DNA of 62,818 nt from a virus (Duplodnaviria; Caudoviricetes). The notes beneath the pieces were generated by a model. The model did not search any database. It was not told the origin of the DNA and saw nothing but the letters and a program-made list of their open reading frames with translations. The DNA lies in IMG/VR virus record IMGVR_UViG_3300029319_007025, positions 1-62,818 of that record, one strand, 5' to 3'. This document shows positions 1 to 62,818 of this stretch, one piece after another. The translations under genes and the position numbers were made by a program. Positions within the stretch are counted from its first letter, which is position 1. Each line of letters opens with the position of its first letter.

Positions 1-100
1 CAAGATCCTAACGCAGGCAACTATGGCAAAGCATCAATCGTGTACCTACCGATTGAACGCAGCTTGTTATTCCGTACGCAAACAAACAGGAACAACCCGG
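1..100. repeat. Terminal direct repeat, copy 1 (circular assembly overlap)
   Basis: 1-100 equals 62719-62818 except position 99 (G) vs 62817 (A). Confidence 0.97.
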
Positions 101-789
101 AGGGCAGGAGCATACTAAGGAACGCATATCGGTCATGGTATTTCATGAAGAAACTTCAAGAGATCGAAGCGATTGGCATTGAGCGTGATCTTAGCGGTTT
201 ACCTGTGTTGGAGGTGCCTCCTGAAATAATGTCTGCTGACGCGTCAGCATCAGACAAGACGTTGCGAACCGACCTTGAAAAGCTCGTCCAACAAATAAAG
301 CGCGACGAGCGAGAGGGTATGGTTATACCTTCTGAACTCGATACCGAGGGCAACCCAACGGGCTATCGGTTTAGGTTATTGAACTCTGGCGGACGACGTG
401 CGGTTGATGTTGATGCAGCAATCAAGCGATATGAGTCACGAATGGCTATGTCCATGATGGCAGAGTTTCTATTGCTTGGCATGGATAAGGTTGGTTCGTT
501 TGCTCTTGCGTCCACAAAGACACATTTATTTAGCGTCGCTTTAGGGACGGTCATTGATAGCGTTTGCCAAACGTTTAGCAGGTTTGCAATCGGGAAGCTC
601 ATGGAGCTGAATGGTGTAGCTCCTGACATATGGCCAACACTAGAGCATGGCGATATCGAAGCGCCTGAATTGAAAGAGATAGCAACGTATGTCACAAGCC
701 TTTCTGATGCCGGCATTCTTGTACCTGATGAGAAGTTAGAGTTGAGAATGCGTGAACTCGCCAACCTACCTGTACCTGAGGATGTCTAA
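1..789 (+). CDS. Portal protein, C-terminal part (DUF935/Mu gp29-like); gene starts at 62209 and wraps the origin, about 432 aa in total
   Basis: Frame is open from base 1 and continuous with 62209-62818; NPEGRSILRNAYRSWYF and GSFALA motifs; follows terL and MuF. Confidence 0.9.
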   Translation, partial: QDPNAGNYGKASIVYLPIERSLLFRTQTNRNNPEGRSILRNAYRSWYFMKKLQEIEAIGIERDLSGLPVLEVPPEIMSADASASDKTLRTDLEKLVQQIKRDEREGMVIPSELDTEGNPTGYRFRLLNSGGRRAVDVDAAIKRYESRMAMSMMAEFLLLGMDKVGSFALASTKTHLFSVALGTVIDSVCQTFSRFAIGKLMELNGVAPDIWPTLEHGDIEAPELKEIATYVTSLSDAGILVPDEKLELRMRELANLPVPEDV

Positions 790-1538
790 TGGCGTACATG
801 ATAAAAGAAATATTTCAAACGGTGCAAGGCGAAGGCAAGCGCACCGATGAAGAGTCAACGTTTGTTAGATTCACAGGATGCAACCTTTGGAGCGGTAAAA
901 CAGAAACAAGGTATAAAGGCAGAGGAGCGTGTGCTTTTTGGTGCGACACCGCTTTTGCTACGGGTGAGCGTTATAAAAATACCGACGAGGTTTTGCTTCA
1001 CATGGAACAAGCTAGGGCTGAGTGCGATATGTTCGCAAAAGACAAGTCACAGAAATGGTGTGTGTTAACAGGAGGAGAGCCTTTGCTACAAGTGGACATG
1101 GCACTTGTTGATTGCTTACACTCTGAGGGTTGGATGATTGCCGTTGAGACGAACGGCACGGTTGCTAACGAGGTTGCGGACGAGATTGATTGGATGTGCG
1201 TTAGCCCCAAATTAGATCACGAAGGACGCCTAGGAAATCTCAAGATCGTGAAGGGGCACGAAATGAAAGTTGTGGTTCCAGGTGCTGTCTCTGGGTTATT
1301 GGGCTGGACGACACAGCGGCTATTAGATTTGCAACGCGCCACCGACTTTGAGAATTATTATGTACAACCCCAGGATCCAATAGTGAAGACGAGCACAAAT
1401 AAATCATACCTTGTTGGAAGTTATGCTGAAGGCGAATATCCGTACAATGCGCGGCTAAGTTTTTGTAGGGAGTTTGTAGACAAGAATCCAGGTTGGCAGG
1501 TATCAATTCAAACACATAAAGAGCAGGGCATTCGATAG
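789..1538 (+). CDS. queE: 7-carboxy-7-deazaguanine synthase, radical SAM
   Basis: [39 protein letters not shown] motifs; Cx16Cx3C cluster motif. Confidence 0.95.
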
Positions 1539-1549
1539 GAAGAAACATT

Positions 1550-2122
1550 ATGGAACACAAAACAGAACAAGAAGTACACGATGCAATCAGAACACTGCTA
1601 CGGTGGGCAGGCGACGATCCGAGTCGAGAGGGTTTGATTGATACACCCAAGCGCGTCGCTAAAGCGTATGGCGAATGGTTTAGCGGCTACGCACAGGATC
1701 CAAAGGATATTCTTCAAAGAACATTTGAAGAGAGCGGCGATTATGATGGCATAGTGTGTTTGAGGGACATTCCTTTCTCGTCACACTGTGAACATCACAT
1801 GGTGCCTATTATCGGCACAGCACATGTAGCGTACCTCCCCGAGGGCAAAGTTGTAGGCATTTCAAAACTCGCTAGGGTTGTCGAAGCATATGCAAAGAGG
1901 TTGCAGATCCAAGAGAAGATGACAAACCAAATAGCGACAGCGATTGATGATGTGCTAGCGCCTAAAGGCGTTGCCGTTCTTATCGAAGCGCAGCATCTTT
2001 GTATGACTACAAGGGGAGTGAATAAGCTCGGAGTCAGTATGGTCACGTCCTCACTCAAGGGTGTGTTCATGGAAAATCTTGATTCACGTACAGAAGTTTT
2101 AGCATTACTAAAAAGCAGATAA
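1550..2122 (+). CDS. folE: GTP cyclohydrolase I
   Basis: [39 protein letters not shown] motifs. Confidence 0.98.
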
Positions 2123-2135
2123 CGTAGGAGGCAAC

Positions 2136-3788
2136 ATGCCGTTACCAATACCAAAAGCAGGTGAGACAAGAGAATCATTCATAACACGGTTCATGGATGA
2201 CAAGAAAACAATAGAAGAGTTCCCGAGAGCGTTGCAGCGTTACGCAATCGCTGTGGGTGCATGGGGCAGGTATAATAAAGTTCGTAAGAATAAAAAGTAC
2301 ACTGTCGCTGTTGTGACCACACGCGACGGAAATAGATATACCGTAAACGGTGCACAGCAAAGCACGTTAAAACTTGAGAGGGGTTTGGTTTATACGTTCG
2401 ACCAAACGTCCGGCACAAACACAATGCACCCGCTGCAAATATCGACCGTATCTGATGGCCCTCATGCTGGCGGGCCTCAATACAATAAAGGTTGGCGCGA
2501 CAATGGAGGCAGAGCGGGAGCAACATTGATATCAACATTCACTGTACCCGCTGATGCTCCTGCACGTCTGTACTACTATTGCAGTAATCACGCAGGTATG
2601 GGTGGAAAGATTGAGGTTAGAAACACAGCGACAAACAAGGCAGAGCCAGGTTCAGCACGTGACGATGCTGACCAAAGCCAACCGGCAGCACCTGACGAAA
2701 GGCGTAGAGGTTCAGGTAGGAACGCACCTGGTTCAGCGTCAACGGAAGGCGGCGCAATTCGTTTGTCTCCTGCAACGGATAGGACACTTCAATCAAAACT
2801 TGATGCACACCATGAGAAGGTCGGCAATGATAAGACGAAGCGCACAACACTAAGAGCGCTACAAGCCGTGTACCGACGCGGAGCGGGTGCGTTTAGCGTA
2901 TCGCATCGCCCAGGAATGGCTCGGGCACAATGGGCAATGGCAAGGGTGAATCATTTTCTACATTTACTTGAAACAGGAAAGCCGAAGGATCCAAAATACA
3001 TCACTGACAACGACCTTTTACCTGAAGGACATCCTGCTATTGTTGAGAAGCAAGACAGCTTCAAACCTCCTAAAGCTGTAAGGGATGTAGCAGCAAGAGG
3101 GCTTGAGCTACGTCGCGAATGGGGCAGAGGCGGTATGGACGTAAGAGAGGCAGCCCGCATTGGTGTAGGCAGTGGCGTACAGCGAGCGACAAATCTCAAG
3201 AACGGTGATAACGTTACGCTCGACACAATACGGCGAATGGTTCGTTTCTTCCAACGGCACTCAACCCACTTCAAACCTAACAAGCTCAAACCAGACGGCG
3301 GGCCAACAGCAGGCACGATTGCGTATTACCTATGGGGCGGCACACCAGGAAAGGAATGGGCAAATAGAATTTGGGATAAGCACGGTGAGTGGAAGAAGCA
3401 GGAAACACCTGCGCACTTTGGCGGAGGAAAGAACATAGAGATTTTCGGCTATGAGACGAAGCATTTCGACATTTGCAAAAGCGCTGTCTTGCTTTTTGAA
3501 AGGCTAATAAAGGATGCGGCATCAGAGAAAGACGCTGTTGAGAGCGCAGCAAAATACCTCGACGAGTTTTTTGGATTAGAGAAAAAGGTTGTTGGTGAAG
3601 GTGAGTCAACAACCGAAGACGCGTTGCAAGCTATGGATCTTGTCTCTTTGTTTACGTACGAGTTAGGCAAGGTTGCAAAAGGTGCTGACCTTGATCTCAC
3701 CCGCAGCTTCGCTTTTATCACGATGCATTTCTATGAGATAGGCAGGCGCATGGTTCCAGAGGAAAGCGAAGAAAAGCATACAAGCTAG
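2136..3788 (+). CDS. Modular head-associated protein (short N-terminal helical module, cupredoxin-like domain, DUF5824-like domain, two further helical modules)
   Basis: HPL...YYYCSNHAGMGG; YRRGAGAFSVSHRPG...QWAMARVN; GxxRA...TIRRM...LWGG modules recalled from phage head-region proteins; SD GGAGG; position in head operon. Confidence 0.6.
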   Translation: MPLPIPKAGETRESFITRFMDDKKTIEEFPRALQRYAIAVGAWGRYNKVRKNKKYTVAVVTTRDGNRYTVNGAQQSTLKLERGLVYTFDQTSGTNTMHPLQISTVSDGPHAGGPQYNKGWRDNGGRAGATLISTFTVPADAPARLYYYCSNHAGMGGKIEVRNTATNKAEPGSARDDADQSQPAAPDERRRGSGRNAPGSASTEGGAIRLSPATDRTLQSKLDAHHEKVGNDKTKRTTLRALQAVYRRGAGAFSVSHRPGMARAQWAMARVNHFLHLLETGKPKDPKYITDNDLLPEGHPAIVEKQDSFKPPKAVRDVAARGLELRREWGRGGMDVREAARIGVGSGVQRATNLKNGDNVTLDTIRRMVRFFQRHSTHFKPNKLKPDGGPTAGTIAYYLWGGTPGKEWANRIWDKHGEWKKQETPAHFGGGKNIEIFGYETKHFDICKSAVLLFERLIKDAASEKDAVESAAKYLDEFFGLEKKVVGEGESTTEDALQAMDLVSLFTYELGKVAKGADLDLTRSFAFITMHFYEIGRRMVPEESEEKHTS

Positions 3789-3795
3789 AACGCTC

Positions 3796-4656
3796 TCATT
3801 TCAAATCATTTACAAATTCTCTATATAACCTGCCATCATTACTATACGTAAATATTTGATAGTTCTTACTTTTGGTATGTACCCCGTATAGGCCCCACTT
3901 CTCTGCAATCACCATTGGTATATTTTCTTTTGGTATTGTTATTACAGGACAGGTGCTCAAACCTATTATGTTTTCTTCGCCCACGGCATCGGCAATAACT
4001 TTTGAATTTCTATCTATTCTATCGCGTAGCTCATGGATACTAAACCTTTTTAGTATTGTTAAAAAATGGTCATATATTTGGGTGGGTGTTGTCGTTGGTG
4101 TTTGGTTCAGTAATCCATATTCATAATATCTTCTGAGATTTAAGTAGCTGAACTCATTTGAATCTTTCAAGCGTGTCCAATAGTTTTTCTTCACACCAAT
4201 TATTGCGAGCCCTGGAAAGCTGCCTAATTGCTTATTAACACAAGTTATAAATATATTCGTGCTCTTTGGTATGTCGTAGTATGGAAAGGAACTGACCACA
4301 TCAACCACGCCCTCGTCTTCGTGATAAGAACTATTAGAAGTTTCCAACTGACAATACAATTTTTCTCGGCGGTATTTTGACGACCCTTCTTTACCATATG
4401 TTCTTACTAACCTTTCCCACCTGTTCCTAAAAACACCTTCATTACCGACAACTTCGATAGGATCAACCAATGACCATACAACCGATTCTATTGCGGTCGT
4501 TCCACTACCACCCATAAATATAATATCGTAATCCCCTAATCTAAATACCTCGGTGAATAAAGTTTTCAAGCGTCCATACGTATGCATAAACTCTTTGTCT
4601 CTATGTGAGTGTAGGACAACACTCTCTGTAGCAATTGATGTATTAGGGCCGAACAT
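3796..4656 (-). CDS. PLP-dependent class V aminotransferase-like protein (PhnW/SerC-like)
   Basis: FGP start, HRD, GSGTTAIES, ETS, DVVSS, NKQLGSFPGL (Schiff-base Lys), TPTT; visibly AT-rich and on the opposite strand. Confidence 0.8.
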   Translation of the reverse strand: MFGPNTSIATESVVLHSHRDKEFMHTYGRLKTLFTEVFRLGDYDIIFMGGSGTTAIESVVWSLVDPIEVVGNEGVFRNRWERLVRTYGKEGSSKYRREKLYCQLETSNSSYHEDEGVVDVVSSFPYYDIPKSTNIFITCVNKQLGSFPGLAIIGVKKNYWTRLKDSNEFSYLNLRRYYEYGLLNQTPTTTPTQIYDHFLTILKRFSIHELRDRIDRNSKVIADAVGEENIIGLSTCPVITIPKENIPMVIAEKWGLYGVHTKSKNYQIFTYSNDGRLYREFVNDLK

Positions 4657-4833
4657 GTTCTTTTAATTCCTTATACACCAACACATTGGCCATGACACTT
4701 GGTAACGGCGACGATGTTGGTTTATCTTACTACGGGACCTTATGATTATTTTGTAGGTATGAAAAAAAACAGCAAATATTTATCATACTTCAAACGTGCA
4801 GAGTGCGCGCTGTTAGGTGTATAAGTTATTCCA

Positions 4834-5445
4834 ATGAAGAAAAAAGCTTTATGTCATATCAGTGGCGGGCTTGATAGCGCAATGGTTGCTGTCAAGTGTT
4901 TAGAAAAATACAACCTTGAGGGGTTCTTTCTTGATTATGGGCAAAGGTATGCAGAGCAAGAGCAATGGGCGGCAAGTAACGTTGCAAGACGTCTTGGTAT
5001 AAAGTTACATTCGGCAAGGCTGACAGGCATCACCGTTGAGTCAGAGAACGAATGGTTCCCAGCGAGAAACCTATACATAGGCGCTCTGTCTTTTTCTATG
5101 GCGAGCCGCCTTGGTTGTTCAGCAATATTGGTTGGCAGTAAAACAAATGAATACCGCGAAGACGATGAGTATTGCTGGCACGACTGTACGAGAGTATTCC
5201 ATGAGAAATTACAAGAGCTTGGCAATCGTGCTCTTGACTTTCCATCTCAAGAGATTGAGGTTTTACAACCATTGCTTGGTTGGAGTAAGCAAGAGGTTGT
5301 TGACGGGCTAAAGGCAGCAAGGATTCCTTTACACGAACTTTGGAGCTGTTATCGTCCCGACAAAGATGGACGCTCATGTGGCGTGTGCTATCACTGTGTA
5401 GAGCTAAAGAAGCTAGGTGTTTGGGAATGCGTACACTCTGCGTAG
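4834..5445 (+). CDS. queC: 7-cyano-7-deazaguanine synthase
   Basis: SGGLDS PP-loop, DYGQR, PARN, WSCY...CGVCYHC zinc site; no glutamine amidotransferase domain. Confidence 0.92.
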   Translation: MKKKALCHISGGLDSAMVAVKCLEKYNLEGFFLDYGQRYAEQEQWAASNVARRLGIKLHSARLTGITVESENEWFPARNLYIGALSFSMASRLGCSAILVGSKTNEYREDDEYCWHDCTRVFHEKLQELGNRALDFPSQEIEVLQPLLGWSKQEVVDGLKAARIPLHELWSCYRPDKDGRSCGVCYHCVELKKLGVWECVHSA

Positions 5446-5750
5446 ATATCGACGGCGTTCTAACACGCGATTGGAAGTCAATGGATTTTGAGAACAGGCG
5501 TCCTCATAAGACAAACATAGCGCGGCTCGCTGATGTATATGCAACAGGCATGGTGCAAGTTGTGCTTTGGACTGCGCGACCTGGCTCAATAAGAAAACAA
5601 ACCGTGAAGTGGTTAGAGGATAATAACGTTTCATACCACGAACTATGGATGGACAAACCTAGCTTCGTTGCGATTGTCGATGACCGTTCAATGACAAGTG
5701 TACCGACAGCGAAACAACTCACAGAGCTACGTGGTTGGGATCTTGTATAA
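5427..5750 (+). CDS. Minimal capless HAD-superfamily phosphatase
   Basis: DIDGV (motif I), WTAR (II), KP (III), VDDR (IV); ATG at 5427 overlapping the end of queC. Confidence 0.85.
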   Translation: MRTLCVDIDGVLTRDWKSMDFENRRPHKTNIARLADVYATGMVQVVLWTARPGSIRKQTVKWLEDNNVSYHELWMDKPSFVAIVDDRSMTSVPTAKQLTELRGWDLV

Positions 5751-5761
5751 AGGAGAGATCA

Positions 5762-7093
5762 ATGAGTGACATAAAAAAGGATTATCAAATACGCCCCTAC
5801 TTTGCTGTAACAGGGACACAGCAAATAGCATTGCTAAAAGAGCAAGGCATAAAAGACATACTGATTTCATATGCACATATCCAAAAAAAAGGTGTACCTG
5901 ATATTCTCAAGAATTGTCATGTTATGCTTGACTCAGGTGCCTACTCGAACATCAAAAACCCTGGGTCGGTTAAGCTCGAAGCCTACATGGAGTTCTTGAA
6001 ATCAGAACGCAAAAAAGTCGCTGAGTACGTTGCGCTCGATGTTGTCCACAATCAGAAACAGACATCAAAGAACTATGAGAAGATGTTGAGGGAAGGGTTT
6101 AACCCGATATTCGTTGACCAGCTTTGCAGCCCCGGCGGGCTCGACGGCACAACCAAGTGGGCGTACAAGTCAGGCAAGAAGATTTGTTGGGCAGGTTTTG
6201 TTATGCCATACAACCACAGAATCAACGCGAAGAAGCGACTTACCCCAGGCGTCAATGATGGTGTGCTAAGTGTATGCGCTGAACGTTTCAACCTTGTAGA
6301 CGCATTTCCAAAAACGAAGCTACATCTTCTTGGTATAGGTTCACGAGGGAGAAGGTTCGTTCCTTTCTGGCGTCAGGTTGAATCAATTGATGCCGCGTCA
6401 TGGATTATTAGGCCACAAGCATTTGGTCAGGTGTTGCACCTTAATAGAAGTAAGGAAGGTTGGCCCTCGTTGAGCACGTCAACCTATGACGCACCAAGTC
6501 AAGAAGCGCGTCAAATAGCGAGCAGGTATGGTTGGAATTTACGTGAGGTTCCCGGCAGGGTGCGTCTCTCGATTCACGAGTATAAACGATACTTTAGAGC
6601 ATTAGAGAGTCGCATGAAACAAGCGATAGAAGAACACAATGCTGAATCGGACGTTGATAAATCCGTGAGTGTTAGTGTTCCTGATACACTAACAGACGAC
6701 AGCAAAAGTGTACATGATATCGCTATCACCTTGCCTATACACAAAGTGGACGATGACCAAAGATTGATAACAGGCATTGTGCTTGAACCTGAAGAGGTTG
6801 ACGCACAGAACGACATCATAAGCGTTGATGAGATTCAGGACGCAGCATTCAGGTTTTTGTCAAAATACAATAAAGATACCAAGCTAGGATTGATGCATAA
6901 AATATTTGAGAACATAGGCGTTGTCCTTGTCGAAAGTTGGATTGCAAAAGAGGACGACACCGTGAATAAAAAGCCAGTCAAAAAAGGCAGTTGGTTGATG
7001 ACTGTCAAAGTATTAGAGGATGGGCTTTGGAAAAAAGTGAAGGATGGTAGTATAACAGGATTCTCTATTGGGGGAGTCGCAAGGGTTTCATAG
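5762..7093 (+). CDS. Fusion of TGT/DpdA-like base-exchange transglycosylase (N-terminal) and XkdF-type prohead serine protease (C-terminal)
   Basis: N-term LDSGAYS, ALDVV, LHLLG, SIDAASW; C-term GIVLEPEEVDAQND, LMH, VESWI, KKGSWLM, GFSIGG; SD AAGGAG before ATG 5762; single uninterrupted frame. Confidence 0.85.
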   Translation: MSDIKKDYQIRPYFAVTGTQQIALLKEQGIKDILISYAHIQKKGVPDILKNCHVMLDSGAYSNIKNPGSVKLEAYMEFLKSERKKVAEYVALDVVHNQKQTSKNYEKMLREGFNPIFVDQLCSPGGLDGTTKWAYKSGKKICWAGFVMPYNHRINAKKRLTPGVNDGVLSVCAERFNLVDAFPKTKLHLLGIGSRGRRFVPFWRQVESIDAASWIIRPQAFGQVLHLNRSKEGWPSLSTSTYDAPSQEARQIASRYGWNLREVPGRVRLSIHEYKRYFRALESRMKQAIEEHNAESDVDKSVSVSVPDTLTDDSKSVHDIAITLPIHKVDDDQRLITGIVLEPEEVDAQNDIISVDEIQDAAFRFLSKYNKDTKLGLMHKIFENIGVVLVESWIAKEDDTVNKKPVKKGSWLMTVKVLEDGLWKKVKDGSITGFSIGGVARVS

Positions 7094-7163
7094 CAAGCAC
7101 TTGCTCTTAGTTTATATTTTTGCTACGCCTACACTAACACTGGCAGTAAGACAGGACACGGAA

Positions 7164-8174
7164 ATGGAATTAGATAAAAAGACCAAACAGCCGCGGCGTC
7201 TAACTAACCTAGATATTCGTGAGGTATCGTTAGTGGACCGTCCTGCAATCAGACGAGAATTTTTGGTTATCAAACGTGACCAAGACAATAACAACAATGA
7301 GGAACCAGACATGGCAGCAGATGACATGCAACAGGAACTCTTCTTCGCCGACAGCGACATGGAGAGTGATATTTCTAATATGGTAGATGCCGAAGTTGAA
7401 AAAGCGATGGAGCTAAAACCTGCAACGCTAAAAGCAATCAAGGATATGTACCAACGTATAGATCAGGACATGCACGAGAATGACGGCAGTGATAAGAAAA
7501 TGCTCGAACGTCTTGCTGCTATGATAGCTCAAGTCCTTCATAAGATGGGGCATGGCGATAAAGAAAAAGGCGGACACTACGGCGAAGAAGACGAGAAAGA
7601 TAAGAACGTCGAAGCCAAAAAATCCGCAACTAAGGAAGAGGTTATGACTGAAAGTGACAATCAAGAAAGCATAGCTTTGGCGAAGAACGAGGACGGATCG
7701 TATGACCTTTCTTCTCTTCCCGAGGCGATCCGTGAACCATTTGCTACATTGTGTAAGCAGAATCAAGAGGCAGTTGAAAAAGCAGCAAAACTTGAGGAGC
7801 TTCTCAAGGCAGAGCAAGACGAACGTCTTCGCCGTGACTTTGTTCAGAAGGCAGAGAATGAGTACACCAACATCCCAGGAACATCCGTCGAAGTTGGTCT
7901 GCTACTAAAATCTCTACACGCGGCAGACGCTGAACTCGCAGCAAAGGTTGAAGAAATTTTCAAAGCAGTAAATAGCCAACTGGCTAACTCAGAGCTTCTT
8001 CGTGAAGCAGGTTCAAGTGAAGAGCCAGAGTCAACTTCTGCTTGGGGACAAATTGAGAAACAAGCAGCAGGCTTAGTTGCCGAGGGCTTGTTCAATAGCA
8101 AAGCGGAGGCTGTTTCTAAAGTTCTAGAAACCAACCCTCGTCTTTATCAGGAATACCTGAAGGAAGGTAACTAG
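7164..8174 (+). CDS. Scaffolding protein with N-terminal protease-associated segment
   Basis: LTNLDIREVSLVDRPA N-terminus, acidic coiled-coil body, NPRLYQEY C-terminus; lies between protease and capsid genes. Confidence 0.75.
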   Translation: MELDKKTKQPRRLTNLDIREVSLVDRPAIRREFLVIKRDQDNNNNEEPDMAADDMQQELFFADSDMESDISNMVDAEVEKAMELKPATLKAIKDMYQRIDQDMHENDGSDKKMLERLAAMIAQVLHKMGHGDKEKGGHYGEEDEKDKNVEAKKSATKEEVMTESDNQESIALAKNEDGSYDLSSLPEAIREPFATLCKQNQEAVEKAAKLEELLKAEQDERLRRDFVQKAENEYTNIPGTSVEVGLLLKSLHAADAELAAKVEEIFKAVNSQLANSELLREAGSSEEPESTSAWGQIEKQAAGLVAEGLFNSKAEAVSKVLETNPRLYQEYLKEGN

Positions 8175-8178
8175 AGAA

Positions 8179-8547
8179 ATGGCATACTCAGATAAAAGTA
8201 TTAAGATCACCCTGCCAGCAGCGTCCGATTTATCGGCAAGTCAATACTGCATGGTGGTTATCAACACAAGCGGTCAGGTTGAATTGTCAGGCGACGACGG
8301 CAATTCTGTAGGCATCTTACAAAACAAACCATCAGCAGCAGGACGTGCGGCTGAGGTTCTTGTTTATGGTGTTAGCAAATTGAAAGCAGGTGCAACCGTT
8401 CGTGCGGGCTACAATGTAGGCTCTGGTGCTAGTGGTCAGGCAAAAGAAACTGACTCTAGCTCTTTCAGAAATGGTGTCTTTATCTCAGGCGGCGCGTCTG
8501 GCGAATTTGTTACTGTTCTTTTCCAGAAGAACGGTCAGCAGTCTTAA
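8179..8547 (+). CDS. Capsid cement/decoration protein (DUF2190-like)
   Basis: Small Gly/Ala-rich beta protein, GILQNKP...GRAAEV; directly upstream of the major capsid gene. Confidence 0.75.
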   Translation: MAYSDKSIKITLPAASDLSASQYCMVVINTSGQVELSGDDGNSVGILQNKPSAAGRAAEVLVYGVSKLKAGATVRAGYNVGSGASGQAKETDSSSFRNGVFISGGASGEFVTVLFQKNGQQS

Positions 8548-8564
8548 AGGAATAAGGTGATATA

Positions 8565-9557
8565 ATGGGTAATCCAGTTTCAAGTGCCGTTCATGTAAAT
8601 ACCCCGTTGACCAACGTCAGCGTGGCATACATGCAAAAGGCAGATTTATTTATCGCGCACAAAGTGTTTCCACAAGTGCCGGTATCAAAGCAAAGCGACA
8701 TTTACTACACGTATGACAAGGATGACTTCCGACGTTCAGAAGCACAGCTTCGTGCCCCAGGCACGGAGAGCGCAGGCGGCGGCTATCGTCTTGACTCAAC
8801 GAATACATACTTCGCTGCTGTCAATGCTATCCACCAAGACATCGGTGATCAGGTTCGTGCGAACGCTGATGCTGTCTTGAACATGGACAAAGACGCCACC
8901 GAATATGTCACTCAGCAGTTGATGCTGAAACGTGAGAAAGATTGGGTAAGCAGCTTCTTCCAACTCGGAACATGGACGGGTGGTATTCGCCCTTCAACTT
9001 CAGGAACCGGAGATCTCGATGGTGCGGGTGCTGACTTTACACAATGGAACTCAACGGGCGCGACTCCTGTCTTCGACATCACTCGTCAAAAGAATGAGAT
9101 TCTAAAAGGCACAGGTTACATGCCGAACACTTTGGTTCTGCATCCAAATGTCTATAACGCACTCATCAACTCAGACGACATTGTAGATCGTGTGAAGTAC
9201 ACGCAGCGCGGCGTCCTTGGGCCTGACCTTCTTGGTGCGGTTCTTGGTATTGACCGAGTATTCGTTGCTTACGCTGGTGAGAACACAGCAAACGAAGGTG
9301 CTACCGCAGCTAACGCATTCATTGGCAGCAATGAAATTGCACTACTTTGCTACAGCGCACCTGCTCCTTCACTTATGCATGCTTCTGCTGGTTACACGTT
9401 CACTTGGAGCGGGTACACTGGTGCTCAAGACGGTATGCGTATTTCTCGATTCCGCATGGAAAATCTTCGTGCTGATCGTGTTGAAGGTGAACTTGCATAC
9501 GACCAGAAGCTGATCTCTGCTTCTCTCGGACAAGTTTTCAAAAACTGCTTGGCGTAG
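8565..9557 (+). CDS. Major capsid protein (HK97 fold, lambda gpE-like)
   Basis: 330 aa; LTNVSVAY, FPQVPV, RAPGTES, PNTLV motifs; SD and synteny. Confidence 0.9.
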   Translation: MGNPVSSAVHVNTPLTNVSVAYMQKADLFIAHKVFPQVPVSKQSDIYYTYDKDDFRRSEAQLRAPGTESAGGGYRLDSTNTYFAAVNAIHQDIGDQVRANADAVLNMDKDATEYVTQQLMLKREKDWVSSFFQLGTWTGGIRPSTSGTGDLDGAGADFTQWNSTGATPVFDITRQKNEILKGTGYMPNTLVLHPNVYNALINSDDIVDRVKYTQRGVLGPDLLGAVLGIDRVFVAYAGENTANEGATAANAFIGSNEIALLCYSAPAPSLMHASAGYTFTWSGYTGAQDGMRISRFRMENLRADRVEGELAYDQKLISASLGQVFKNCLA

Positions 9558-9565
9558 GTTAAACA

Positions 9566-9907
9566 ATGGCTAAAAGAATCGCGGTAGGTACAAAGAAGAA
9601 AGGCGGCTTGAAGTTTGTCATTGATGGCAAACTTGTTGTCGTAGGTCCTGGTGAGCTAGTCCCACAAGAAGCAGAGTCACAAGTGCGTGACCGCTTCTTC
9701 CGCGATAGGCGAGTGGTATGGGTTGAGGTTAAAGAAAAATCGAAACCCAAACCAAGCCCTTCGAAAACAAAGAAGGAGACAGCCAAAACAAAATCGGCAT
9801 CTCCCTCGCCGTCTTCGGAGGGTGCGGGGGCTTCGGCCCCTGCCCCTCTTGAAGTAAAGGCAGAGGAAGGCAACGCTAAAAGTGATAAGCCGAAACGGAA
9901 GCAGTAA
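9566..9907 (+). CDS. Hypothetical Lys/Pro/Ser-rich protein
   Basis: ORF tightly following the capsid gene; low-complexity tail. Confidence 0.6.
   Translation: MAKRIAVGTKKKGGLKFVIDGKLVVVGPGELVPQEAESQVRDRFFRDRRVVWVEVKEKSKPKPSPSKTKKETAKTKSASPSPSSEGAGASAPAPLEVKAEEGNAKSDKPKRKQ
9818..9848 (+). terminator. GC-rich cUUCGg hairpin, candidate attenuator/transcript stabiliser after the capsid gene
   Basis: GAGGGTGCGGGGGC-TTCG-GCCCCTGCCCCTC; only a TT tail follows. Confidence 0.5.
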
Positions 9908-9967
9908 GTTGCAAAGTTTTGACTAGGTTCGGGGAGATTGAAACCTCCTTGAGGGGAGGCGTTTGAA

Positions 9968-10411
9968 ATGACCTGGAGCTACTCGGGCGATCCATCTAGT
10001 TCGGATCGTGACAAAGTTCGTTTCTTAGTATTCGATACAGATACAAACGACCAGTTACTTAGCAACGAAGAGCTTGACTGGCTCTTATCACAGAACAGCA
10101 ATATTTACATGGCTGCCGCAACAGCGGCAGAAGCTATCGCTGCAAAGTTCGCTAAAGATATAAGCCGGTCGGTCGTTGGTATCAGTGCAACGCCTGGAGG
10201 CAGAGCGGATTTCTATCTCGAACTCGCTGAGCGTTTGAGGGCACAGGTTTCATCTACAAACAAACACGCGCAGGTATTTGCGGGTGGCCTTTCTATTGAT
10301 AATAAAGAGGCGCTTGATGATGACTCAGATGCCGTGCAACCTGGGTTCAAGATTGGTCAGTTTGATTATGACGGTCCTAACCAAGGGCAAGACTACACGG
10401 ATCCTGAGTAA
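9968..10411 (+). CDS. Head-tail adaptor/connector
   Basis: DKVRFLVFDTD...LLSNEEL motif; synteny. Confidence 0.75.
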   Translation: MTWSYSGDPSSSDRDKVRFLVFDTDTNDQLLSNEELDWLLSQNSNIYMAAATAAEAIAAKFAKDISRSVVGISATPGGRADFYLELAERLRAQVSSTNKHAQVFAGGLSIDNKEALDDDSDAVQPGFKIGQFDYDGPNQGQDYTDPE

Positions 10412-11010
10412 TGGTTGACTTCAAGTTCAAACTTGACGGTAAGCCAGGCAAGGCATTGCTGCAACTTGAGAAGACGCTCGGCATGAGCATGGCTAAAGAG
10501 ACATACAGGTTCGCAGAGTATGCGGCAGGCATTGTCCGTGAAACAATCAAAGTCGAGTGGCTTGATAAAAGTACGGCAGGTGTATCAACCGGACAACTCA
10601 TGCGGTCGTATAGGCCAACGATGCTTATGACTTCGGGCAAGGATGTTTCCGTAGGCATCTTTTCCGACCTCGTCTACGCGGGCATTCACGAAACAGGCGG
10701 GACGATAACCGCGAAGAATGCGACGAACCTAGCAATACCTTTGACAAGAAAAGCTAGGCGTGTGTCAGCGCGTCAGTTTCCTGGCAACCTGAAGTACGTT
10801 CCTGTACCAGGGAAGAATTATAAATTACTTGTTGAGGTTAGGAAACGCAAGAACGTAGCACATTACTTGCTCAAGCGCTCCGTGCGTATCAAACCAAAAC
10901 GCTATCTTGCTTCATCTGTGAAAACAATAAACAAGGTGCTTCCATCCTATTGGAGGTCGAGTATAAATGGTACAGTGAAAAAAAGTTTCAGAGGTTTGAA
11001 GACGAGATAA
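10411..11010 (+). CDS. Neck/virion morphogenesis protein (Mu gpG / HK97 gp10-like)
   Basis: TGQLMRS and YAGIHETGG motifs, basic, IKPKRYL. Confidence 0.75.
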   Translation: MVDFKFKLDGKPGKALLQLEKTLGMSMAKETYRFAEYAAGIVRETIKVEWLDKSTAGVSTGQLMRSYRPTMLMTSGKDVSVGIFSDLVYAGIHETGGTITAKNATNLAIPLTRKARRVSARQFPGNLKYVPVPGKNYKLLVEVRKRKNVAHYLLKRSVRIKPKRYLASSVKTINKVLPSYWRSSINGTVKKSFRGLKTR

Positions 11011-11011
11011 A

Positions 11012-11461
11012 ATGGGTACGCCGAGTAGACAAAATATAGTTTCAAATTTGAAGACAACGCTTGAAACTATTACGACAGGCAATGGATATGATACCGATGT
11101 TGCTACGGTGCAGATCCTTGCGAAGTCGTGGTTGCAGGTTCCGCAGCAAATAAGACCTTGGCTTGGTATAGTTCCTCAAGAGACAAACTACCAATACTTG
11201 CCAAATGGAATCATCAGGTCTGTTCTTGTCATTGATATTATAGGTCACGTAGCAAACGGAACAGCAGAGCAAAAACGTGCAAGGTTATCAGGGCTTATCG
11301 ACGACCTGTTTGCCGCGCTTAACGTTGATACAACTAGGAACGGCAACGCGGTTATGACCACGGTCGTTTCATCTGAGACAGACGAAGGTGATCCAGAAAG
11401 TGATGGAACATTAGTTCTGAGAATAAACGTGGTTTATATGCGAACCACTGGGAGTACATAA
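11012..11461 (+). CDS. Tail terminator (lambda gpU-like)
   Basis: Size, RQNI...L...I...NGY N-terminus, synteny before tail tube. Confidence 0.65.
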   Translation: MGTPSRQNIVSNLKTTLETITTGNGYDTDVATVQILAKSWLQVPQQIRPWLGIVPQETNYQYLPNGIIRSVLVIDIIGHVANGTAEQKRARLSGLIDDLFAALNVDTTRNGNAVMTTVVSSETDEGDPESDGTLVLRINVVYMRTTGST

Positions 11462-11462
11462 A

Positions 11463-11693
11463 ATGGCAGCAATAAGATATGTGGGCGACGCTGAAAGCAT
11501 TCGCCTGGGTGCCTTGCTCGTAAGGAAAGGAGTGACACTAGCTGTCTCCGATGCTCTTGCGCGTGAGTTTTTAAACGTTCAAGGTTTCGAGATTATTGAA
11601 GATGAGAAACCTGCTAAGAAACAATCTAAGAAAAAGCAAAAGGAAGAAGCCATCGAGCCAGAGCCTAAAGCAATCGAAGAGGAGATCAAGTAA
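11463..11693 (+). CDS. Small hypothetical protein
   Basis: Translationally coupled ORF within the tail operon. Confidence 0.6.
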   Translation: MAAIRYVGDAESIRLGALLVRKGVTLAVSDALAREFLNVQGFEIIEDEKPAKKQSKKKQKEEAIEPEPKAIEEEIK

Positions 11694-32438: not shown

Positions 32439-32896
32439 TCCGACGAAGAATGTTCCACATATTCGCGAACGATAGTCAAAAACTCATCAAACAAAACAGC
32501 AACATGGGGGGTATCCGTTTGCTTTGCAAATGGCGCACTAAACCTGTAGTCATTCATGTGGTGTCCAAATATAATATGGAGATGCGCCATTCTCAATGTC
32601 ACATAAATATTCTTTGTGCGTGTCTTATGTGTGACCGCTATGGGTATTAGCTCATCAACCAACCCGGCAACGCTGACATCATGCTCTGCTTGCTTTAGCT
32701 TTTTCAACGGGGTTGGATTCATTGCGTCCTGGCATTCAATCCAAAAACCAGGCAACCCTGTCACGTCTGACTCCTCTGCTTGCCGTGATTGAATAGAGCG
32801 TCTAATAACCTCTGCGTACTTTGGGAAGCTATCGCGCAACTTACGTGCTATTTGACGCTCGAACCTCTTCCCTTTATCCCGTTGCATTTTACTCAT
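32435..32896 (-). CDS. Holliday junction resolvase-like PD-(D/E)xK nuclease
   Basis: KGKRFER...SDV...WIEC; start reassigned to MSKMQRDKG overlapping the queD stop. Confidence 0.75.
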   Translation of the reverse strand: MSKMQRDKGKRFERQIARKLRDSFPKYAEVIRRSIQSRQAEESDVTGLPGFWIECQDAMNPTPLKKLKQAEHDVSVAGLVDELIPIAVTHKTRTKNIYVTLRMAHLHIIFGHHMNDYRFSAPFAKQTDTPHVAVLFDEFLTIVREYVEHSSSE

Positions 32897-33362
32897 TGCG
32901 ATGTGTACCCGGTTCATCTCCTGGTTCATATGTCGCGCTGTTCTTATCGTTCTCTCTGACCTCAATCTTTGTTATCCAGACACGGTGGTTTGTTTTCTTT
33001 GTAACCATTGCGTTTACTTTATTGTAAGCCATGTATGCTGTACCCTCCATGCCTACGTCGTCCCAAACCCGCAAAGCACAAGCGCCTTTCTTTTCTAATT
33101 CCGTGAATGTTTCAAGCAATGGGTCGTTGGCATCAAGCAGTAACGTGTGGTCAAACATATACTCTAACCATTCCTTCACGTCCTGAAGGTCACCAAAGTC
33201 CATTACAAAGCCATTCTTTGTGCGCGTGTTACAAGCAAACCAAAATGTAAAACTGCGACTATAGCCATGTATAAAAGCACAATGTCCATCATGCTGCCAA
33301 CGCCTATGGGCGCATGGCAAGTTGTTGAATGTTTTGGTTGAGCGATAAATTCCAAGTTCCAT
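32889..33362 (-). CDS. queD: 6-carboxytetrahydropterin synthase
   Basis: CAHR, HCAFIHGY, VMDFG, FDHTLL, VREN motifs. Confidence 0.93.
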   Translation of the reverse strand: MELGIYRSTKTFNNLPCAHRRWQHDGHCAFIHGYSRSFTFWFACNTRTKNGFVMDFGDLQDVKEWLEYMFDHTLLLDANDPLLETFTELEKKGACALRVWDDVGMEGTAYMAYNKVNAMVTKKTNHRVWITKIEVRENDKNSATYEPGDEPGTHRNE

Positions 33363-45040: not shown

Positions 45041-45329
45041 AAACAAAGCATTGAACAAAGATCACAAAGACGTAGCAATTGAAGCATTGAAAAATGCAGC
45101 ATGGGCATATCGTACAGGTCGCGGCGAAACCTTCGCAATCGAAGCAAAGTTGCAGGCACAAAAAGACGCAGCACACGGAGCGGGGTTTGCGCGGGAAGCA
45201 ATCGTAATGGGACACGCGCTGTCATGCATTCAATACACAGCAATGGCAATTGAAGACGGTGACATCGAATATGATTCGGCAGAACGTCGCTTCGAGAAAA
45301 TGATCTCAAAAATCCAACGAATCAAATAG
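45030..45329 (+). CDS. Early hypothetical protein (possibly leaderless)
   Basis: ATG lies 6 nt downstream of the -10 box with no SD. Confidence 0.65.
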   Translation: MERTNKALNKDHKDVAIEALKNAAWAYRTGRGETFAIEAKLQAQKDAAHGAGFAREAIVMGHALSCIQYTAMAIEDGDIEYDSAERRFEKMISKIQRIK

Positions 45330-45355
45330 ACACAGGGTAAACGCTAGTTTATAAA
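45327..45355 (+). promoter_or_regulatory. Repeated early promoter TAGACA-cagggtaaacgctaNNN-TATAAA
   Basis: 17-nt spacer; one of four near-identical copies. Confidence 0.8.
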
Positions 45356-45377
45356 CAAACACACAGGGAGAAAGCAA

Positions 45378-59971: not shown

Positions 59972-61300
59972 ATGAGCACAGAAGAAAAATCGCTAGCGCA
60001 AGTTCTTGCTGATTTGCCGGACGCAGATCGCGCAAGGATGCTTGATGCATTGAGCGCTGAAACGCTGTCCGACCTGATGAACAGTTGGGAATTTTTGGCG
60101 CGTCCAAAACAGAAGCCGCCCGCTGGCAACTGGCGCATTTGGTTGATAATGGCAGGGCGTGGGTTTGGCAAAACACGAACAGGTGCCGAATGGGTGCGCG
60201 GCAAAGTTGAGGCAGGCACGGCAAGGCGTATCGCATTGATTGGACGAACCGCGGCAGACGTTCGAGATGTAATGGTCGAAGGGCCTAGCGGCATAATTGC
60301 GATAAGTGCGCCAGGTATGGTGCCTACGTATATACCCTCAAAGCGTAAGCTAGTATGGCCTAACGGCGCTGTGGCGCAAATGTTCTCCGCTGACGAACCG
60401 AACCTCCTCCGTGGGCCGCAGTTCGATTGTGCCTGGGCAGACGAGCTTGCCGCGTGGAAATACTACGAAGCGTTTGACCAAGTCATGTTTGGTTTGCGCT
60501 TGGGTAGTGACCCTAGGTGTGTGGTAACAACTACGCCACGTCCTGTGAAGATTATACGCGACTTGCTTGCTGCGAAGAACTGCACCGTAACAACGGGGAG
60601 CACGTTTGAGAATCGTGCTAATCTTGCGCCACAATTTTTTGAAGAAATCGTAAAGAAGTATGAGGGTACATCCCTAGGGCAGCAAGAGCTTTACGCGCAA
60701 GTCATCGACGAGATGCCAGGCGCATTGTGGTCACGTGATCTGCTTGAGAATTGTCGTACCAACGAAGTGACGCACAGCCTTGTCCGTACGGTTGTTGCTA
60801 TCGACCCAGCAATGGGCGGCACGAAAGGTGAGACAGGTATTCTTGTTTGCGCGGTTGATACACAGGGTCACGGCGTTGTGCTTGAGGATTGTTCGATACG
60901 CGGAACGCCAGATCAATGGGCAAGGAAGGCAGTGTTTGCTTATCACAAATACCAAGCAGACAGAATCGTGGCCGAAGTCAATCAAGGCGGCGACCTGGTT
61001 GAGCGCGTTCTTCGTACGGTTGACGAGAATGTGTCCTATAAGAAAGTGCGAGCATCGAAAGGCAAGATGGCCCGCGCTGAACCCATCGCCGCTTTGTACG
61101 AGCAAGGCAAGGTTATACACCTAGGGCACTTTCTCAAACTAGAGGACCAGATGTGTTCATACGTGCCGGGAGAAACAACGTCACCCGACCGGCTTGATGC
61201 ACTCGTCTGGGGGCTAACGGATTTATTGCTTGGCAAACGTCAGGTGCTATCGCTTGCGGTAGGTGACTTTGGATTGAGGACAGCGCCATGGAAAATGTAG
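59972..61300 (+). CDS. terL: Terminase large subunit (Terminase_6-like)
   Basis: AGRGFGKT, AWADE, TTTP, AIDP, SPDRLDA. Confidence 0.97.
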   Translation: MSTEEKSLAQVLADLPDADRARMLDALSAETLSDLMNSWEFLARPKQKPPAGNWRIWLIMAGRGFGKTRTGAEWVRGKVEAGTARRIALIGRTAADVRDVMVEGPSGIIAISAPGMVPTYIPSKRKLVWPNGAVAQMFSADEPNLLRGPQFDCAWADELAAWKYYEAFDQVMFGLRLGSDPRCVVTTTPRPVKIIRDLLAAKNCTVTTGSTFENRANLAPQFFEEIVKKYEGTSLGQQELYAQVIDEMPGALWSRDLLENCRTNEVTHSLVRTVVAIDPAMGGTKGETGILVCAVDTQGHGVVLEDCSIRGTPDQWARKAVFAYHKYQADRIVAEVNQGGDLVERVLRTVDENVSYKKVRASKGKMARAEPIAALYEQGKVIHLGHFLKLEDQMCSYVPGETTSPDRLDALVWGLTDLLLGKRQVLSLAVGDFGLRTAPWKM

Positions 61301-62199
61301 CAACATGCGAACACCACGCACCAATGGTGTGTAAACATGTAGGTCAAGGTAGTGCAGAAAATTTTCTCAAAGCAGATGAGCTTGCATTAATCAAAAAAGC
61401 AAAACGCTCATTTCCAAGAGAGCTTGAAACAGCAACACAGCCTTTGAAACGTGCACTAAGAAGATTCTTTCGCAAGATCGTGAAACGTGAAATAGCAAAA
61501 CTTCAAAGAGCAGGCACACTTAGGTTGTTCTCAAGCCGTGCCGGAGGGCAGGTTCGCAAGGCTGAAGTCACTTTGAAAAAAGCAATATCTCAAAAGGATA
61601 GGAAACAGTTCGGCGAACTCGTCAAGACATACGGCATACGCACCCAGGAACGAGCAGGGAAGCGCACAGCGAAGCAACTCGGGGGCAAGTGGTCTGTGCG
61701 CCCTGAAGATCAAACGCGCTTCATAGCGGAGCGTGAGCTTGTGTGGGGCAAGACGCTGAACCAAATCAATGTCGATCTTGAGGACACATTCCGCGACGTG
61801 TTGGTTGATTCAGCGAACGCTGAACCACGTCCAGGCATAAACACGATAACCCGCAACCTATTCGACGCAGCACTCTCAGCGGGAGGCGTTATAAGCCCAG
61901 GCAGGGCAGAGCGCATAGCGAGAACAGAAATGCATGTCTTTCAAAATGATGGCATCTATAAGGGCTATCGCGCTTCGGGTATAAAGAAGCTACGCTGGGT
62001 TACAATCATGGACGGCAGAGAGCGCCGTGAAAAAAGAACAAACCACGCACTACAAAGCAATGTTACCGTGCCAGTTGGATCTGCTTTTGTAATGAAAGCC
62101 TCTGGCGGCAAATTGCGTTACCCAGGCGACACGTCGCTGGGCGCTAAACCTTTTGATACAGTCAATTGCCGTTGCACTACAGTTCCTGTAATTGAGTAA
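61288..62199 (+). CDS. MuF / SPP1 gp7-like minor head protein
   Basis: RAERIARTE, LRYPGD, NCRC; start uncertain. Confidence 0.9.
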   Translation: MENVATCEHHAPMVCKHVGQGSAENFLKADELALIKKAKRSFPRELETATQPLKRALRRFFRKIVKREIAKLQRAGTLRLFSSRAGGQVRKAEVTLKKAISQKDRKQFGELVKTYGIRTQERAGKRTAKQLGGKWSVRPEDQTRFIAERELVWGKTLNQINVDLEDTFRDVLVDSANAEPRPGINTITRNLFDAALSAGGVISPGRAERIARTEMHVFQNDGIYKGYRASGIKKLRWVTIMDGRERREKRTNHALQSNVTVPVGSAFVMKASGGKLRYPGDTSLGAKPFDTVNCRCTTVPVIE

Positions 62200-62208: not shown

Positions 62209-62818
62209 ATGGCTACAAAGAATGACAAAGTAAATTTAAATATCATAGGCACAACCGGCCTCCGCAGAGAGGATGGTTACATCTACGATGAATGGCTGCC
62301 ACAGCTCAAAGGAGATAACCGAAACAAAGTATACCGGCAGATGCGTGATAACGACGCGATAGTCGGCGCATTTATGTACGCGGTTGAGTCGCTTGTCAGG
62401 CAGGTTCATTACTATGTGAAACCAGCAAACAAAACAACGGAGGCTGCCGAGCAAGCAAAGTTTGTTGAGACATGTTTGAGTGACATGAGCCACACGTTAT
62501 CCGACTTGCTTTCAGAGATACTTACCATGCTTGTATATGGTTGGTCATACTTCGAGGTTGTTTATAAAGTTAGAGCAGGTTCAAAGAATAAAAAAGCAAG
62601 CCATCGCTCAAGGTATGATGACGGCAAAATTGGTTGGAGAAAAATATCACAGCGAGCGCAGAACACGCTTGACCACTGGGAGTTCGATGACGATGGCGGC
62701 ATCAGAGGTATGTGGCAGCAAGATCCTAACGCAGGCAACTATGGCAAAGCATCAATCGTGTACCTACCGATTGAACGCAGCTTGTTATTCCGTACGCAAA
62801 CAAACAGGAACAACCCAG
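62209..62818 (+). CDS. Portal protein, N-terminal part (continues at position 1)
   Basis: ATG 62209, MATKNDKVNLNIIGTTGL...YRQMRDNDAIVG...YGWSYFEVVY; in frame with 1-789. Confidence 0.9.
   Translation, partial: MATKNDKVNLNIIGTTGLRREDGYIYDEWLPQLKGDNRNKVYRQMRDNDAIVGAFMYAVESLVRQVHYYVKPANKTTEAAEQAKFVETCLSDMSHTLSDLLSEILTMLVYGWSYFEVVYKVRAGSKNKKASHRSRYDDGKIGWRKISQRAQNTLDHWEFDDDGGIRGMWQQDPNAGNYGKASIVYLPIERSLLFRTQTNRNNP
62719..62818. repeat. Terminal direct repeat, copy 2
   Basis: 99/100 identical to 1-100. Confidence 0.97.

Follow-up and report, generated by a model that had tools for sequence, protein, structure and literature searches.

The modification of phage DNA with 7-deazaguanines is usually treated as a cytoplasmic, post-replicative process carried out by a stand-alone DpdA, and five branches of this enzyme are in print, DpdA1–4 and bDpdA, as defined in the main texts of Hutinet et al. 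(2019, PMC6884629; 2023, PMC10516641). For the S. Montevideo DpdA (solved chain 7ui4), PMC10164549 gives Asp95 as general acid/base, Phe99 as gate and Asp256 as nucleophile. Polyvalent proteins, as the main text of Iyer et al. (2017, PMC5512222) describes them, carry several DNA- or host-directed enzyme domains per chain, are encoded among virion genes and end in a C-terminal assemblin-like peptidase. Here we analyze the IMG/VR record IMGVR_UViG_3300029319_007025 (Duplodnaviria; Caudoviricetes), all 62,818 bases of which we call the window, and describe a gene in its head module in which a predicted DpdA-type transglycosylase is the N-terminal domain of a prohead protease, with genes for the synthesis of preQ0 close by.

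The initial annotation of this DNA had listed a 'TGT/protease' (TGT, tRNA-guanine transglycosylase) between portal and capsid. Both identities stood, with the correction that they belong to a single open reading frame (ORF) of 443 amino acids in which a disordered linker separates the two domains:

5735-7093 (+): TGT/protease fusion, one ORF; likely start at ATG 5762, after AAGGAGAG, giving 443 amino acids
5762..6646 (+): DpdA-like transglycosylase domain, residues 1-295, with D57, Y61, D93 and D210 (evidence: structure model, Foldseek, VIA-align, phrog_887 at 7e-14, alignment to 7ui4)
6647..6736 (+): disordered linker, residues 296-325 (predicted local distance difference test score, pLDDT, <50)
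6737..7093 (+): XkdF-type prohead protease domain, residues 326-443 plus stop (PF14550, 108.5 bits against a cut-off of 24; phrog_3017, 3.8e-35)

AlphaFold2, run on an alignment of 22 sequences, gave a model (mean pLDDT 77.5) with a confident domain at residues 10-295, most of it above 85, followed by disorder at 296-325 and then by a second domain (326-436). All 50 of the top 50 Foldseek matches in the Protein Data Bank were tRNA-guanine transglycosylases. With VIA-align, residues 3-293 of the model superposed on the archaeal enzyme arcTGT (1iq8) with a Z score of 19.2 and a root-mean-square deviation of 3.5 Å over 262 residues, and bacterial and eukaryotic TGT gave Z scores of ~18; matches in BFVD included phage queuine tRNA-ribosyltransferases. 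The sole library match of the N-terminal domain by sequence was likewise phrog_887, 'queuine tRNA-ribosyltransferase' (7e-14 over ~110 residues). A weak alignment of the family profile to 7ui4 (E 0.18) paired MLDSGAY with MGDCGAF and HLLGIG...SIDAAS with HLLGIAR...SIDSTT, thereby placing D57, Y61 and D210 on Asp95, Phe99 and Asp256; D57 and D210 fell at chain positions 115 and 276, which become Asp95 and Asp256 once a 20-residue tag, an offset that we deduced from the numbering, is subtracted. D57, D93 and D210 were invariant in 22 of the 22 rows of our alignment (A1), and D93, a residue beyond the coverage of the solved-chain alignment, lies at the spacing from D57 expected for the base-reading Asp130. 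The best explanation of this domain, from its modeled fold and its conserved residues, is a divergent DpdA-type transglycosylase predicted to exchange guanine in DNA for preQ0.

The C-terminal domain matched Peptidase_S78_2 (XkdF) over model positions 5-123 of 126, and its gene lies where a prohead protease is encoded, between portal/MuF and scaffold/capsid. H379 and S435, which we take to be the catalytic pair by comparison with the HK97 protease family, were kept in 16/16 XkdF-bearing rows of the same alignment, together with D347, D351 and E391 (Asp in P0054). Because Pfam and PHROG scans of all ORFs found no other protease family in the genome, the XkdF domain is the only recognizable prohead protease of this phage.

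To learn how often the two domains occur together, we searched residues 1-310 alone against 1.84 billion cluster representatives, which returned 396 matches at E ≤ 0.001 and 53 at E ≤ 1e-10. We scanned 50 of the best matches with Pfam, leaving out P0002 (95% identical to the query and already carrying PF14550) and P0044 (partial), and found a C-terminal Peptidase_S78_2 domain in 44 of these 50 closest homologues. Further domains lay between the two ends in some of them: an ATP-dependent DNA ligase in 10/50, a D12 Dam methylase in 2/50, and a SAM methyltransferase, a LAGLIDADG endonuclease, DUF5824 and DUF6884 in 1/50 each. Fused relatives reached 1,780 amino acids, and the lower-ranking matches were stand-alone proteins of 225-320 amino acids. 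All 32 of the 32 homologues scanned against PHROG matched phrog_887, the 3 that are solo proteins within the fused clade at E values of ~1e-15 to 1e-19 and the remaining 29 at 1e-19 to 1e-55. Separately, the LAGLIDADG inserts that we encountered in relatives, one in the portal gene at L005:3001-5790 and one in the DpdA-ligase-XkdF protein P0030, have an arrangement that suggests inteins.

A tree of the cut-out N-domains (122 of 155 matches, each covering at least 180 profile positions, a filter that dropped the DpdA of phage Rinkes) placed the query in a clade of 53 rows with SH-like support of 99, of which 47 were fused and 6 solo; the 69 rows outside it comprised 66 solo and 3 fused sequences and included the DpdA of phiSM and of JG054. 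This tree was inferred with FastTree only, has an arbitrary root and samples the query's own top 150 matches. Among 50,697 deposited phage genomes there was no member of the branch; the best N-domain match there had 25% identity (E 3e-5), and the best matches were annotated DpdA proteins of Cellulophaga, Rhizobium, Pseudomonas and Mycobacterium phages, with those of Cellulophaga phage phiSM and its like (25% identity; phrog_887) the nearest named homologues. The branch has therefore escaped surveys based on isolates. Taken across these homologues, the sequences indicate that the transglycosylase-protease fusion is a conserved architecture and not an accident.

The initial annotation had proposed a synteny survey of related genomes. 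An IMG/VR profile scan yielded 11 loci. We ran Pfam on the plus-strand ORFs of seven; of the other four, L002 and L004 appear to duplicate L001 and L003, and L008 and L011 stood outside the Pfam scan. Six of the seven were head-module loci, and the seventh, L010, held a solo homologue outside the head module. The gene content of the six was as follows:

L001: MuF, FolE, QueC, DUF5591 (ArcS-like), a 1,539-amino-acid DpdA-ligase-XkdF protein, capsid
L003: portal, QueD, FolE, fusion
L005: terminase, portal, MuF, QueD, fusion
L006: QueD, FolE, radical-SAM protein, glycosyltransferase, a 368-amino-acid DpdA-like gene, a separate 329-amino-acid XkdF gene
L007: FolE, Vut_1 (YhhQ-like) transporter, fusion
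L009: FolE, fusion

In 6/6 head-module loci, que-type genes (drawn from FolE, QueD, QueC, a radical-SAM protein, the ArcS-like DUF5591 and the YhhQ-like Vut_1) immediately preceded the transglycosylase-protease, and scaffold and capsid genes followed it. Because this layout of que genes, fusion, scaffold and capsid recurs in six loci whose transglycosylase domains are at most 33% identical to that of the window, it is not a product of chance.

ORF and domain scans of the window confirmed the gene order and coordinates that had been annotated from portal through capsid, with the head module running as follows:

61288..62199 (+): MuF-like head morphogenesis protein, upstream of portal (PF04233; phrog_2468)
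62209..62818 (+): portal, N-terminal part (phrog_113, 3e-23)
1..789 (+): portal, C-terminal part (Portal_Mu, 2e-14; phrog_113, 6e-44)
789..1538 (+): queE-like radical-SAM 7-carboxy-7-deazaguanine (CDG) synthase (TIGR04508, 1.7e-50; phrog_2076, 9e-26), with a TAATG junction
1550..2122 (+): folE, GTP cyclohydrolase I (PF01227, 246 bits; NF006825, 263 bits against a cut-off of 174)
2136..3788 (+): 550-amino-acid modular protein with a cupredoxin-like YYYCSNHAGMGG segment and DUF5824 (32.6 bits against 25)
3796..4656 (-): aminotransferase-like ORF of 286 amino acids (weak NCBIfam class-V aminotransferase matches)
4834..5445 (+): queC, preQ0 synthase-like (PF06508, 99.8 bits against 22; phrog_1550), with a PP-loop SGGLDS and a CGVCYHC zinc motif
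5427..5750 (+): HAD phosphatase of 107 amino acids (HAD_PNKP, 0.0016; phrog_1238, 8.6e-17; phrog_505), with a DIDG motif
5735-7093 (+): the TGT/protease fusion detailed above
7164..8174 (+): acidic scaffold-like protein, start ATG 7164 (translation; N-terminal motif)
8179..8547 (+): head protein of 122 amino acids, Head_fibr-like (phrog_673, named head scaffolding)
8565..9557 (+): major capsid protein (phrog_1005, 1.8e-76)

All four preQ0 enzymes, FolE, QueD, QueE and QueC, are encoded by the phage. The initial annotation had placed the preQ0 genes inside the head module, which holds for FolE, QueE and QueC and fails for QueD, a PTPS-family protein encoded 26 kb away at 32889..33362 on the minus strand (phrog_2389, 7e-36; PF01242, 76.2 bits against 22.4) between RusA-like and SbcC-like genes of the replication and recombination arm (SbcCD). 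FolE and QueD scored above curated cut-offs, although QueD reads HGY where we take the family motif to be HGH. QueC passed its Pfam threshold and scored 75.8 on TIGR00364, under the cut-off of 150.3, and the QueE match to TIGR04508 was full-length at 171.8 bits, under a cut-off of 240, with an atypical cluster motif, Cx16Cx3C. No QueF, QueF-L, ArcS (DUF5591), Gat-QueC or other amidotransferase was detected in any ORF of the whole genome (scans of 13, 56 and 46 ORFs), the weak QueF match of FolE (21 bits against 27.3) being due to their shared T-fold. Since the four enzymes are present and no later-step enzyme accompanies them, dPreQ0 is the default product, as initially annotated; from this gene content, dPreQ0 is the likely base in the DNA, with dADG as the alternative.

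The aminotransferase-like gene in the middle of the module is on the opposite strand and has a GC content of 35-39%, compared with 46-48% in its flanks. Its class-V aminotransferase matches (1e-9 to 5e-3) were far under the cut-offs, and its family is widespread in marine samples (285-293 amino acids, 263 homologues), with some members fused to a SAM methyltransferase. The same arrangement, with the reverse gene in the same place, occurred in contigs from other samples. We considered this gene as a step of the pathway, for instance one leading to an aminomethyl derivative, and rejected it on account of its low GC content and its widespread marine family, and because the stretches that we scanned in related loci lack it; it is probably an acquired low-GC passenger insert and not a pathway step. 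Its homologues include proteins of a Marine Group III euryarchaeote and of Vibrio cholerae. Of the remaining small genes in the module, the HAD gene starts at ATG 5427 (MRTLCVDIDG), overlaps the end of queC and bears a weak likeness to the PNKP phosphatase domain, and the 550-amino-acid protein matched the structural families phrog_677, 708 and 6005, with its cupredoxin-like YYYCSNHAGMGGKIEV segment matching phage baseplate and structural PHROGs, so by its family matches it is probably virion-associated. The DUF5824 domain of the latter protein recurs inside P0042, one of the polyvalent DpdA...XkdF relatives.

Downstream of the fusion, the scaffold-like protein is acidic and helical, and its sole conserved part is an N-terminal motif at residues 12-37 (nucleotides 7197-7274), which reads RRL..LDIREVSLVDRPA.R.FLVIK in the window and has the consensus RRL..LD[IV]REVSLVDRPA.R.FLV.K. 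The equivalent gene in L001, L002, L005, L006 and L008 begins with this motif too (alignment A3), and in 2 of 4 sequences it gave a weak, sub-threshold match (E ~0.1) to positions 122-149 of the 165-position Peptidase_S78 model. In Bacillus phage BMBtp14 a similar motif, ISYVDKAANKKQFFLTK, stands in cis at residues 14-30, before an XkdF domain at 42-156 and a scaffold-like tail, and the gene that follows a short XkdF protein in Rhizobium phage RHph_TM16 begins with a looser version, IVSMVKRGANRIPFRFVK. The motif was present in 0 of 153 DpdA-domain matches. From this distribution we infer that the scaffold motif is a partner of the XkdF domain, through which the scaffold would recruit the protease and its passenger. 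A recoding event joining the fusion to the scaffold was rejected for want of a consistent signal: the scaffold frame is +1 in the window, L001 and L005 show the same frame, and L006 a different one.

We also looked for a methyltransferase-protease fusion as a precedent among deposited genomes, and rejected the two candidates, because the ORFs of Rhizobium phage RHph_TM16 (210 amino acids) and Lactococcus phage 50901 (350 amino acids) hold only Peptidase_S78_2. The entries concerned, MN988459.1 (92326-92958, 'DNA methyltransferase/prohead protease') and KX456208.1 (17716-18768, 'DNA methyltransferase'), are XkdF only by Pfam, and the methyltransferase name, which also stands on phrog_1530, appears from these scans to be a propagated mis-annotation.

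The initial annotation had tied the supply of the modified base to head morphogenesis. In favor of that link are the covalent fusion to the prohead protease, the layout conserved in distant relatives and the coupling of queE to the portal stop, where the claimed TAATG overlap is indeed found at 787-791; the gaps that follow are also short (11 nucleotides between queE and folE, 13 between folE and the next gene), with a ribosome-binding site at each. Gene order, TAATG coupling and the fusion argue for co-expression with the head genes. Weighing against a supply that is purely late are the position of QueD in an opposite-strand arm and, before queC, the reverse gene and a gap of 177 nucleotides. 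Sigma-70 promoter-like sites (11, compared with 13.1 ± 3.6 in shuffled sequences) and terminator-like sites (15, compared with 9.9 ± 3.2) were not above chance and are therefore uninformative about transcription units, and no Rfam family, hence no preQ1 riboswitch, was found in the window. A phage protein with a Sigma70_r2 domain (E 4.6e-6) is encoded at 52916-53587 (+). By virtue of that domain it may act as a sigma factor of the phage, and scans for host-consensus promoters would then say little about late genes. We additionally noted a cassette, TAGACACAGGGTAAACGCTA-N3-TATAAAC-(~8 nt)-AAGGAGAAAGCAAA-ATG, in four copies before right-arm genes, all on the plus strand (45327-45380, 45673-45726, 55735-55788 and 57019-57072), which looks like a phage-specific promoter with its leader; the head module has 0 copies.

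Our preferred reading, in which we place moderate confidence, is that the window encodes a preQ0 DNA-modification system in its head operon, with the transglycosylase as a passenger that the prohead protease carries into the procapsid and that acts at packaging. FolE, QueE and QueC from the head module and QueD from the replication arm would make preQ0 from GTP, and the DpdA-type transglycosylase, as the N-terminal passenger of the only prohead protease, would swap guanine in DNA for preQ0. The XkdF domain would bring the fusion into the procapsid during assembly, the probable docking site being the conserved motif at the scaffold's N-terminus, and the protease would then cut inside the disordered linker, whose residues 296-325 are, going by the model, a candidate site of maturation cleavage. 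The transglycosylase would act where and when DNA is packaged, or stay in the head and travel with the DNA, and the expected product would be dPreQ0 at a subset of guanines. The gene and domain arrangement makes such a coupling of modification to packaging plausible.

Several observations weigh against this reading. The sequence lacks the CXCX2CX22H zinc site that bacterial DpdA and TGT have, with no Cys cluster after residue 210; the N-domain matched no Pfam family, TGT included, at E ≤ 0.01 and had no NCBIfam match; and the links to characterized DpdA enzymes are weak (E 0.18 for 7ui4; 25% identity and E 3e-5 for the DpdA of phiSM). Nor is the fusion obligatory, as 6 of the 53 clade members do without XkdF and L006 has the two domains as adjacent separate genes. 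The pathway itself is split over two transcription units, with QueD in the opposite-strand replication arm, and within the head module the reverse-strand gene and the 177-nucleotide gap break the operon before queC. Finally, we know of no base-flipping enzyme that works on condensed DNA inside a capsid.

The composition of the genome adds a further point of this kind. The initial annotation had suggested that the modification protects against restriction and had named k-mer depletion as a check, and the outcome ran against complete protection: palindromes were strongly avoided genome-wide, with 15 of 16 four-base palindromes below expectation, TTAA at 41 observed versus 185 expected (0.22) and ATCGAT, CTGCAG and CGCGCG at zero copies. 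TTAA contains no G and thus cannot be protected by guanine modification. G-containing palindromes (TGCGCA, CCATGG and CTGCAG) were depleted too. Because palindromes remain depleted, any protection is partial at best and blanket protection is unlikely.

We weighed three other explanations. It is possible, if somewhat doubtful, that the transglycosylase is a cytoplasmic enzyme working on replicated or concatemeric DNA, that the fusion only ensures late, abundant synthesis, and that self-cleavage frees the domain so that nothing functional enters the capsid. All characterized DpdA enzymes act post-replication on free DNA (PMC10516641, PMC6884629). The modeled linker is disordered and would be cleavable, and the split and solo forms within the clade (L006, P0007, P0011 and P0021) imply that the enzyme can work unfused. 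A fusion that served expression alone would, however, not be expected to persist in 44/50 homologues at 30-40% identity, nor to gather a ligase (10/50) and a Dam methylase (2/50), always upstream of the same C-terminal protease, and such gathering of domains is the pattern of virion-packaged polyvalent proteins in the main text of Iyer et al. (2017, PMC5512222).

That same resemblance, to polyvalent proteins whose C-terminal assemblin-like peptidase accompanies proposed packaging and injection (main text of PMC5512222), also favors delivery by the virion, in which DpdA would be ejected with the genome and would modify new DNA early from the host's preQ0 pool, ahead of late-operon expression, with little role at packaging. 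Ligase and Dam methylase partners would suit DNA care in the first minutes, and dpdA is otherwise available only late; yet neither the survival of XkdF passengers through maturation nor their ejection has support, the few molecules per virion would face many genomes, and a preQ0 pathway of the phage's own beside the enzyme suggests that the enzyme serves the ongoing infection cycle, all of which makes this explanation unlikely. It is highly unlikely that the system does not modify DNA at all, with a TGT-like domain that either works on tRNA or is a catalytically dead passenger with a structural or scaffolding role, and with que genes that serve host queuosine metabolism: the lost zinc site, the weak similarity to proven DpdA and the atypical radical-SAM motif of QueE fit such a view, but none of the three active-site aspartates varies, phage DpdA proteins are the closest named relatives, there is no anticodon-recognition or PUA-type extension, no tRNA gene is present in the phage, and the domains co-fused in relatives act on DNA.

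Returning to the protease passenger that acts at packaging, one could go further and place the base exchange at or inside the procapsid itself. Docking would then load tens of transglycosylases per prohead (and in relatives a repair kit with ligase or methylase as well), and the DNA would be hypermodified and proof-repaired while it is threaded in, a proposal that we regard as doubtful. If it were true, DNA modification inside a capsid would be seen here for the first time, and DNA-care enzymes would have a general route into phage heads as passengers.

As for the genome as a whole, the record is classed as linear with a CheckV completeness of 61%. The first 30 nucleotides of the window are repeated at 62719, and its two 100-nucleotide ends differ by 1 base, so that the ends repeat ~100 nucleotides of the start and the genome is circular or terminally redundant. 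The portal gene spans the window ends (62209..62818 for the N-terminal part, 1..789 for the C-terminal part), and whole-genome ORF scans detected small and large terminase, MuF, portal, head, tail, lysis and replication modules, the last with recombination genes. Given the end repeat, the portal across the ends and the presence of all modules, we treated the genome as essentially complete and circularly permuted, at ~62.7 kb. The public runs containing this phage are marine metagenomes, and no RNA run is listed among them. A megablast of positions 1-12000 against deposited phages gave no match, no relative turned up when single proteins were used for locus scans of IMG/VR and metagenome contigs, and a word-index protein search found just 3 homologues. 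Elsewhere in the window are a MoxR-like AAA+ ATPase followed by a DUF2201 metallopeptidase/VWA protein (47757-50494, +), a second ATPase of the AAA_5 family (55784-57016) and a DenV-like pyrimidine-dimer DNA glycosylase (50494-50994, +; Pyr_excise E 6e-6, phrog_624), which might suit a sunlit marine phage.

A full-text literature search for DpdA or TGT together with a prohead or capsid maturation protease turned up only genome notes in which the genes are separate entries. The main texts of PMC6884629 and PMC10516641, their supplements lying outside the search, contain neither 'protease' nor 'capsid', and the main text of Iyer et al. (2017, PMC5512222) does not mention TGT, queuine, deazaguanine or XkdF. 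By its sequence the protease-fused DpdA in the head operon thus appears to be a distinct branch without a description in the literature searched. It comprises at least 47 sequence clusters in which the enzyme is fixed to the capsid-maturation protease, often with ligase or methylase domains, an arrangement suggesting that the fusion ties DNA modification physically to capsid assembly. If the passenger is encapsidated, this would be a DpdA branch beyond the five in print, the XkdF domain and the scaffold's N-terminal motif would form an enzyme-loading route usable for packaging cargo, and the question would arise of DNA modification or repair during packaging.

Several described systems share parts of this arrangement. 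Cellulophaga phage phiSM, Pseudomonas phage JG054 (Queuovirinae) and Enterobacteria phage 9g resemble the window in combining FolE, QueD, QueE and QueC with a small TGT-fold transglycosylase that lacks tRNA-binding extensions. In phiSM and JG054, however, dpdA is a stand-alone gene encoding 240-312 amino acids and lies beside DNA polymerase or clamp genes, whereas in the window it belongs to the head operon, is fused to the protease and groups in another clade. Mycobacterium cluster B phages such as Rinkes likewise have que and dpdA genes near packaging genes, where genes 2-7 stand directly upstream of the terminase, but their cluster does not lie between portal and protease and their DpdA is a separate protein of 290 amino acids; their capsid maturation protease is instead fused to MuF (PMC9584339). 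The bacterial DpdA/DpdB of S. Montevideo shares the TIM-barrel TGT core, with the acid/base Asp, the gate aromatic residue and the nucleophile Asp aligning, and it differs in being part of a host restriction-modification system; no Ins8, no CXCX2CX22H zinc site and no DpdB-like ATPase was identified in the window.

The canonical XkdF protein gp58 of BMBtp14 resembles the protease half of the fusion, with Peptidase_S78_2 between portal/MuF and capsid and a similar ISxVDxxAN..F motif. It differs in that BMBtp14 holds motif, protease and scaffold-like tail in one chain, whereas in the window the protease stands behind DpdA and the motif is on a separate scaffold protein. Judged by sequence against the definition in the main text of PMC5512222, the fusion has the features of a polyvalent protein (two domains, a virion-gene context and a C-terminal peptidase). 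Its relatives carry a ligase, a Dam methylase or a SAM methyltransferase between DpdA and XkdF, and the window has the minimal two-domain form.

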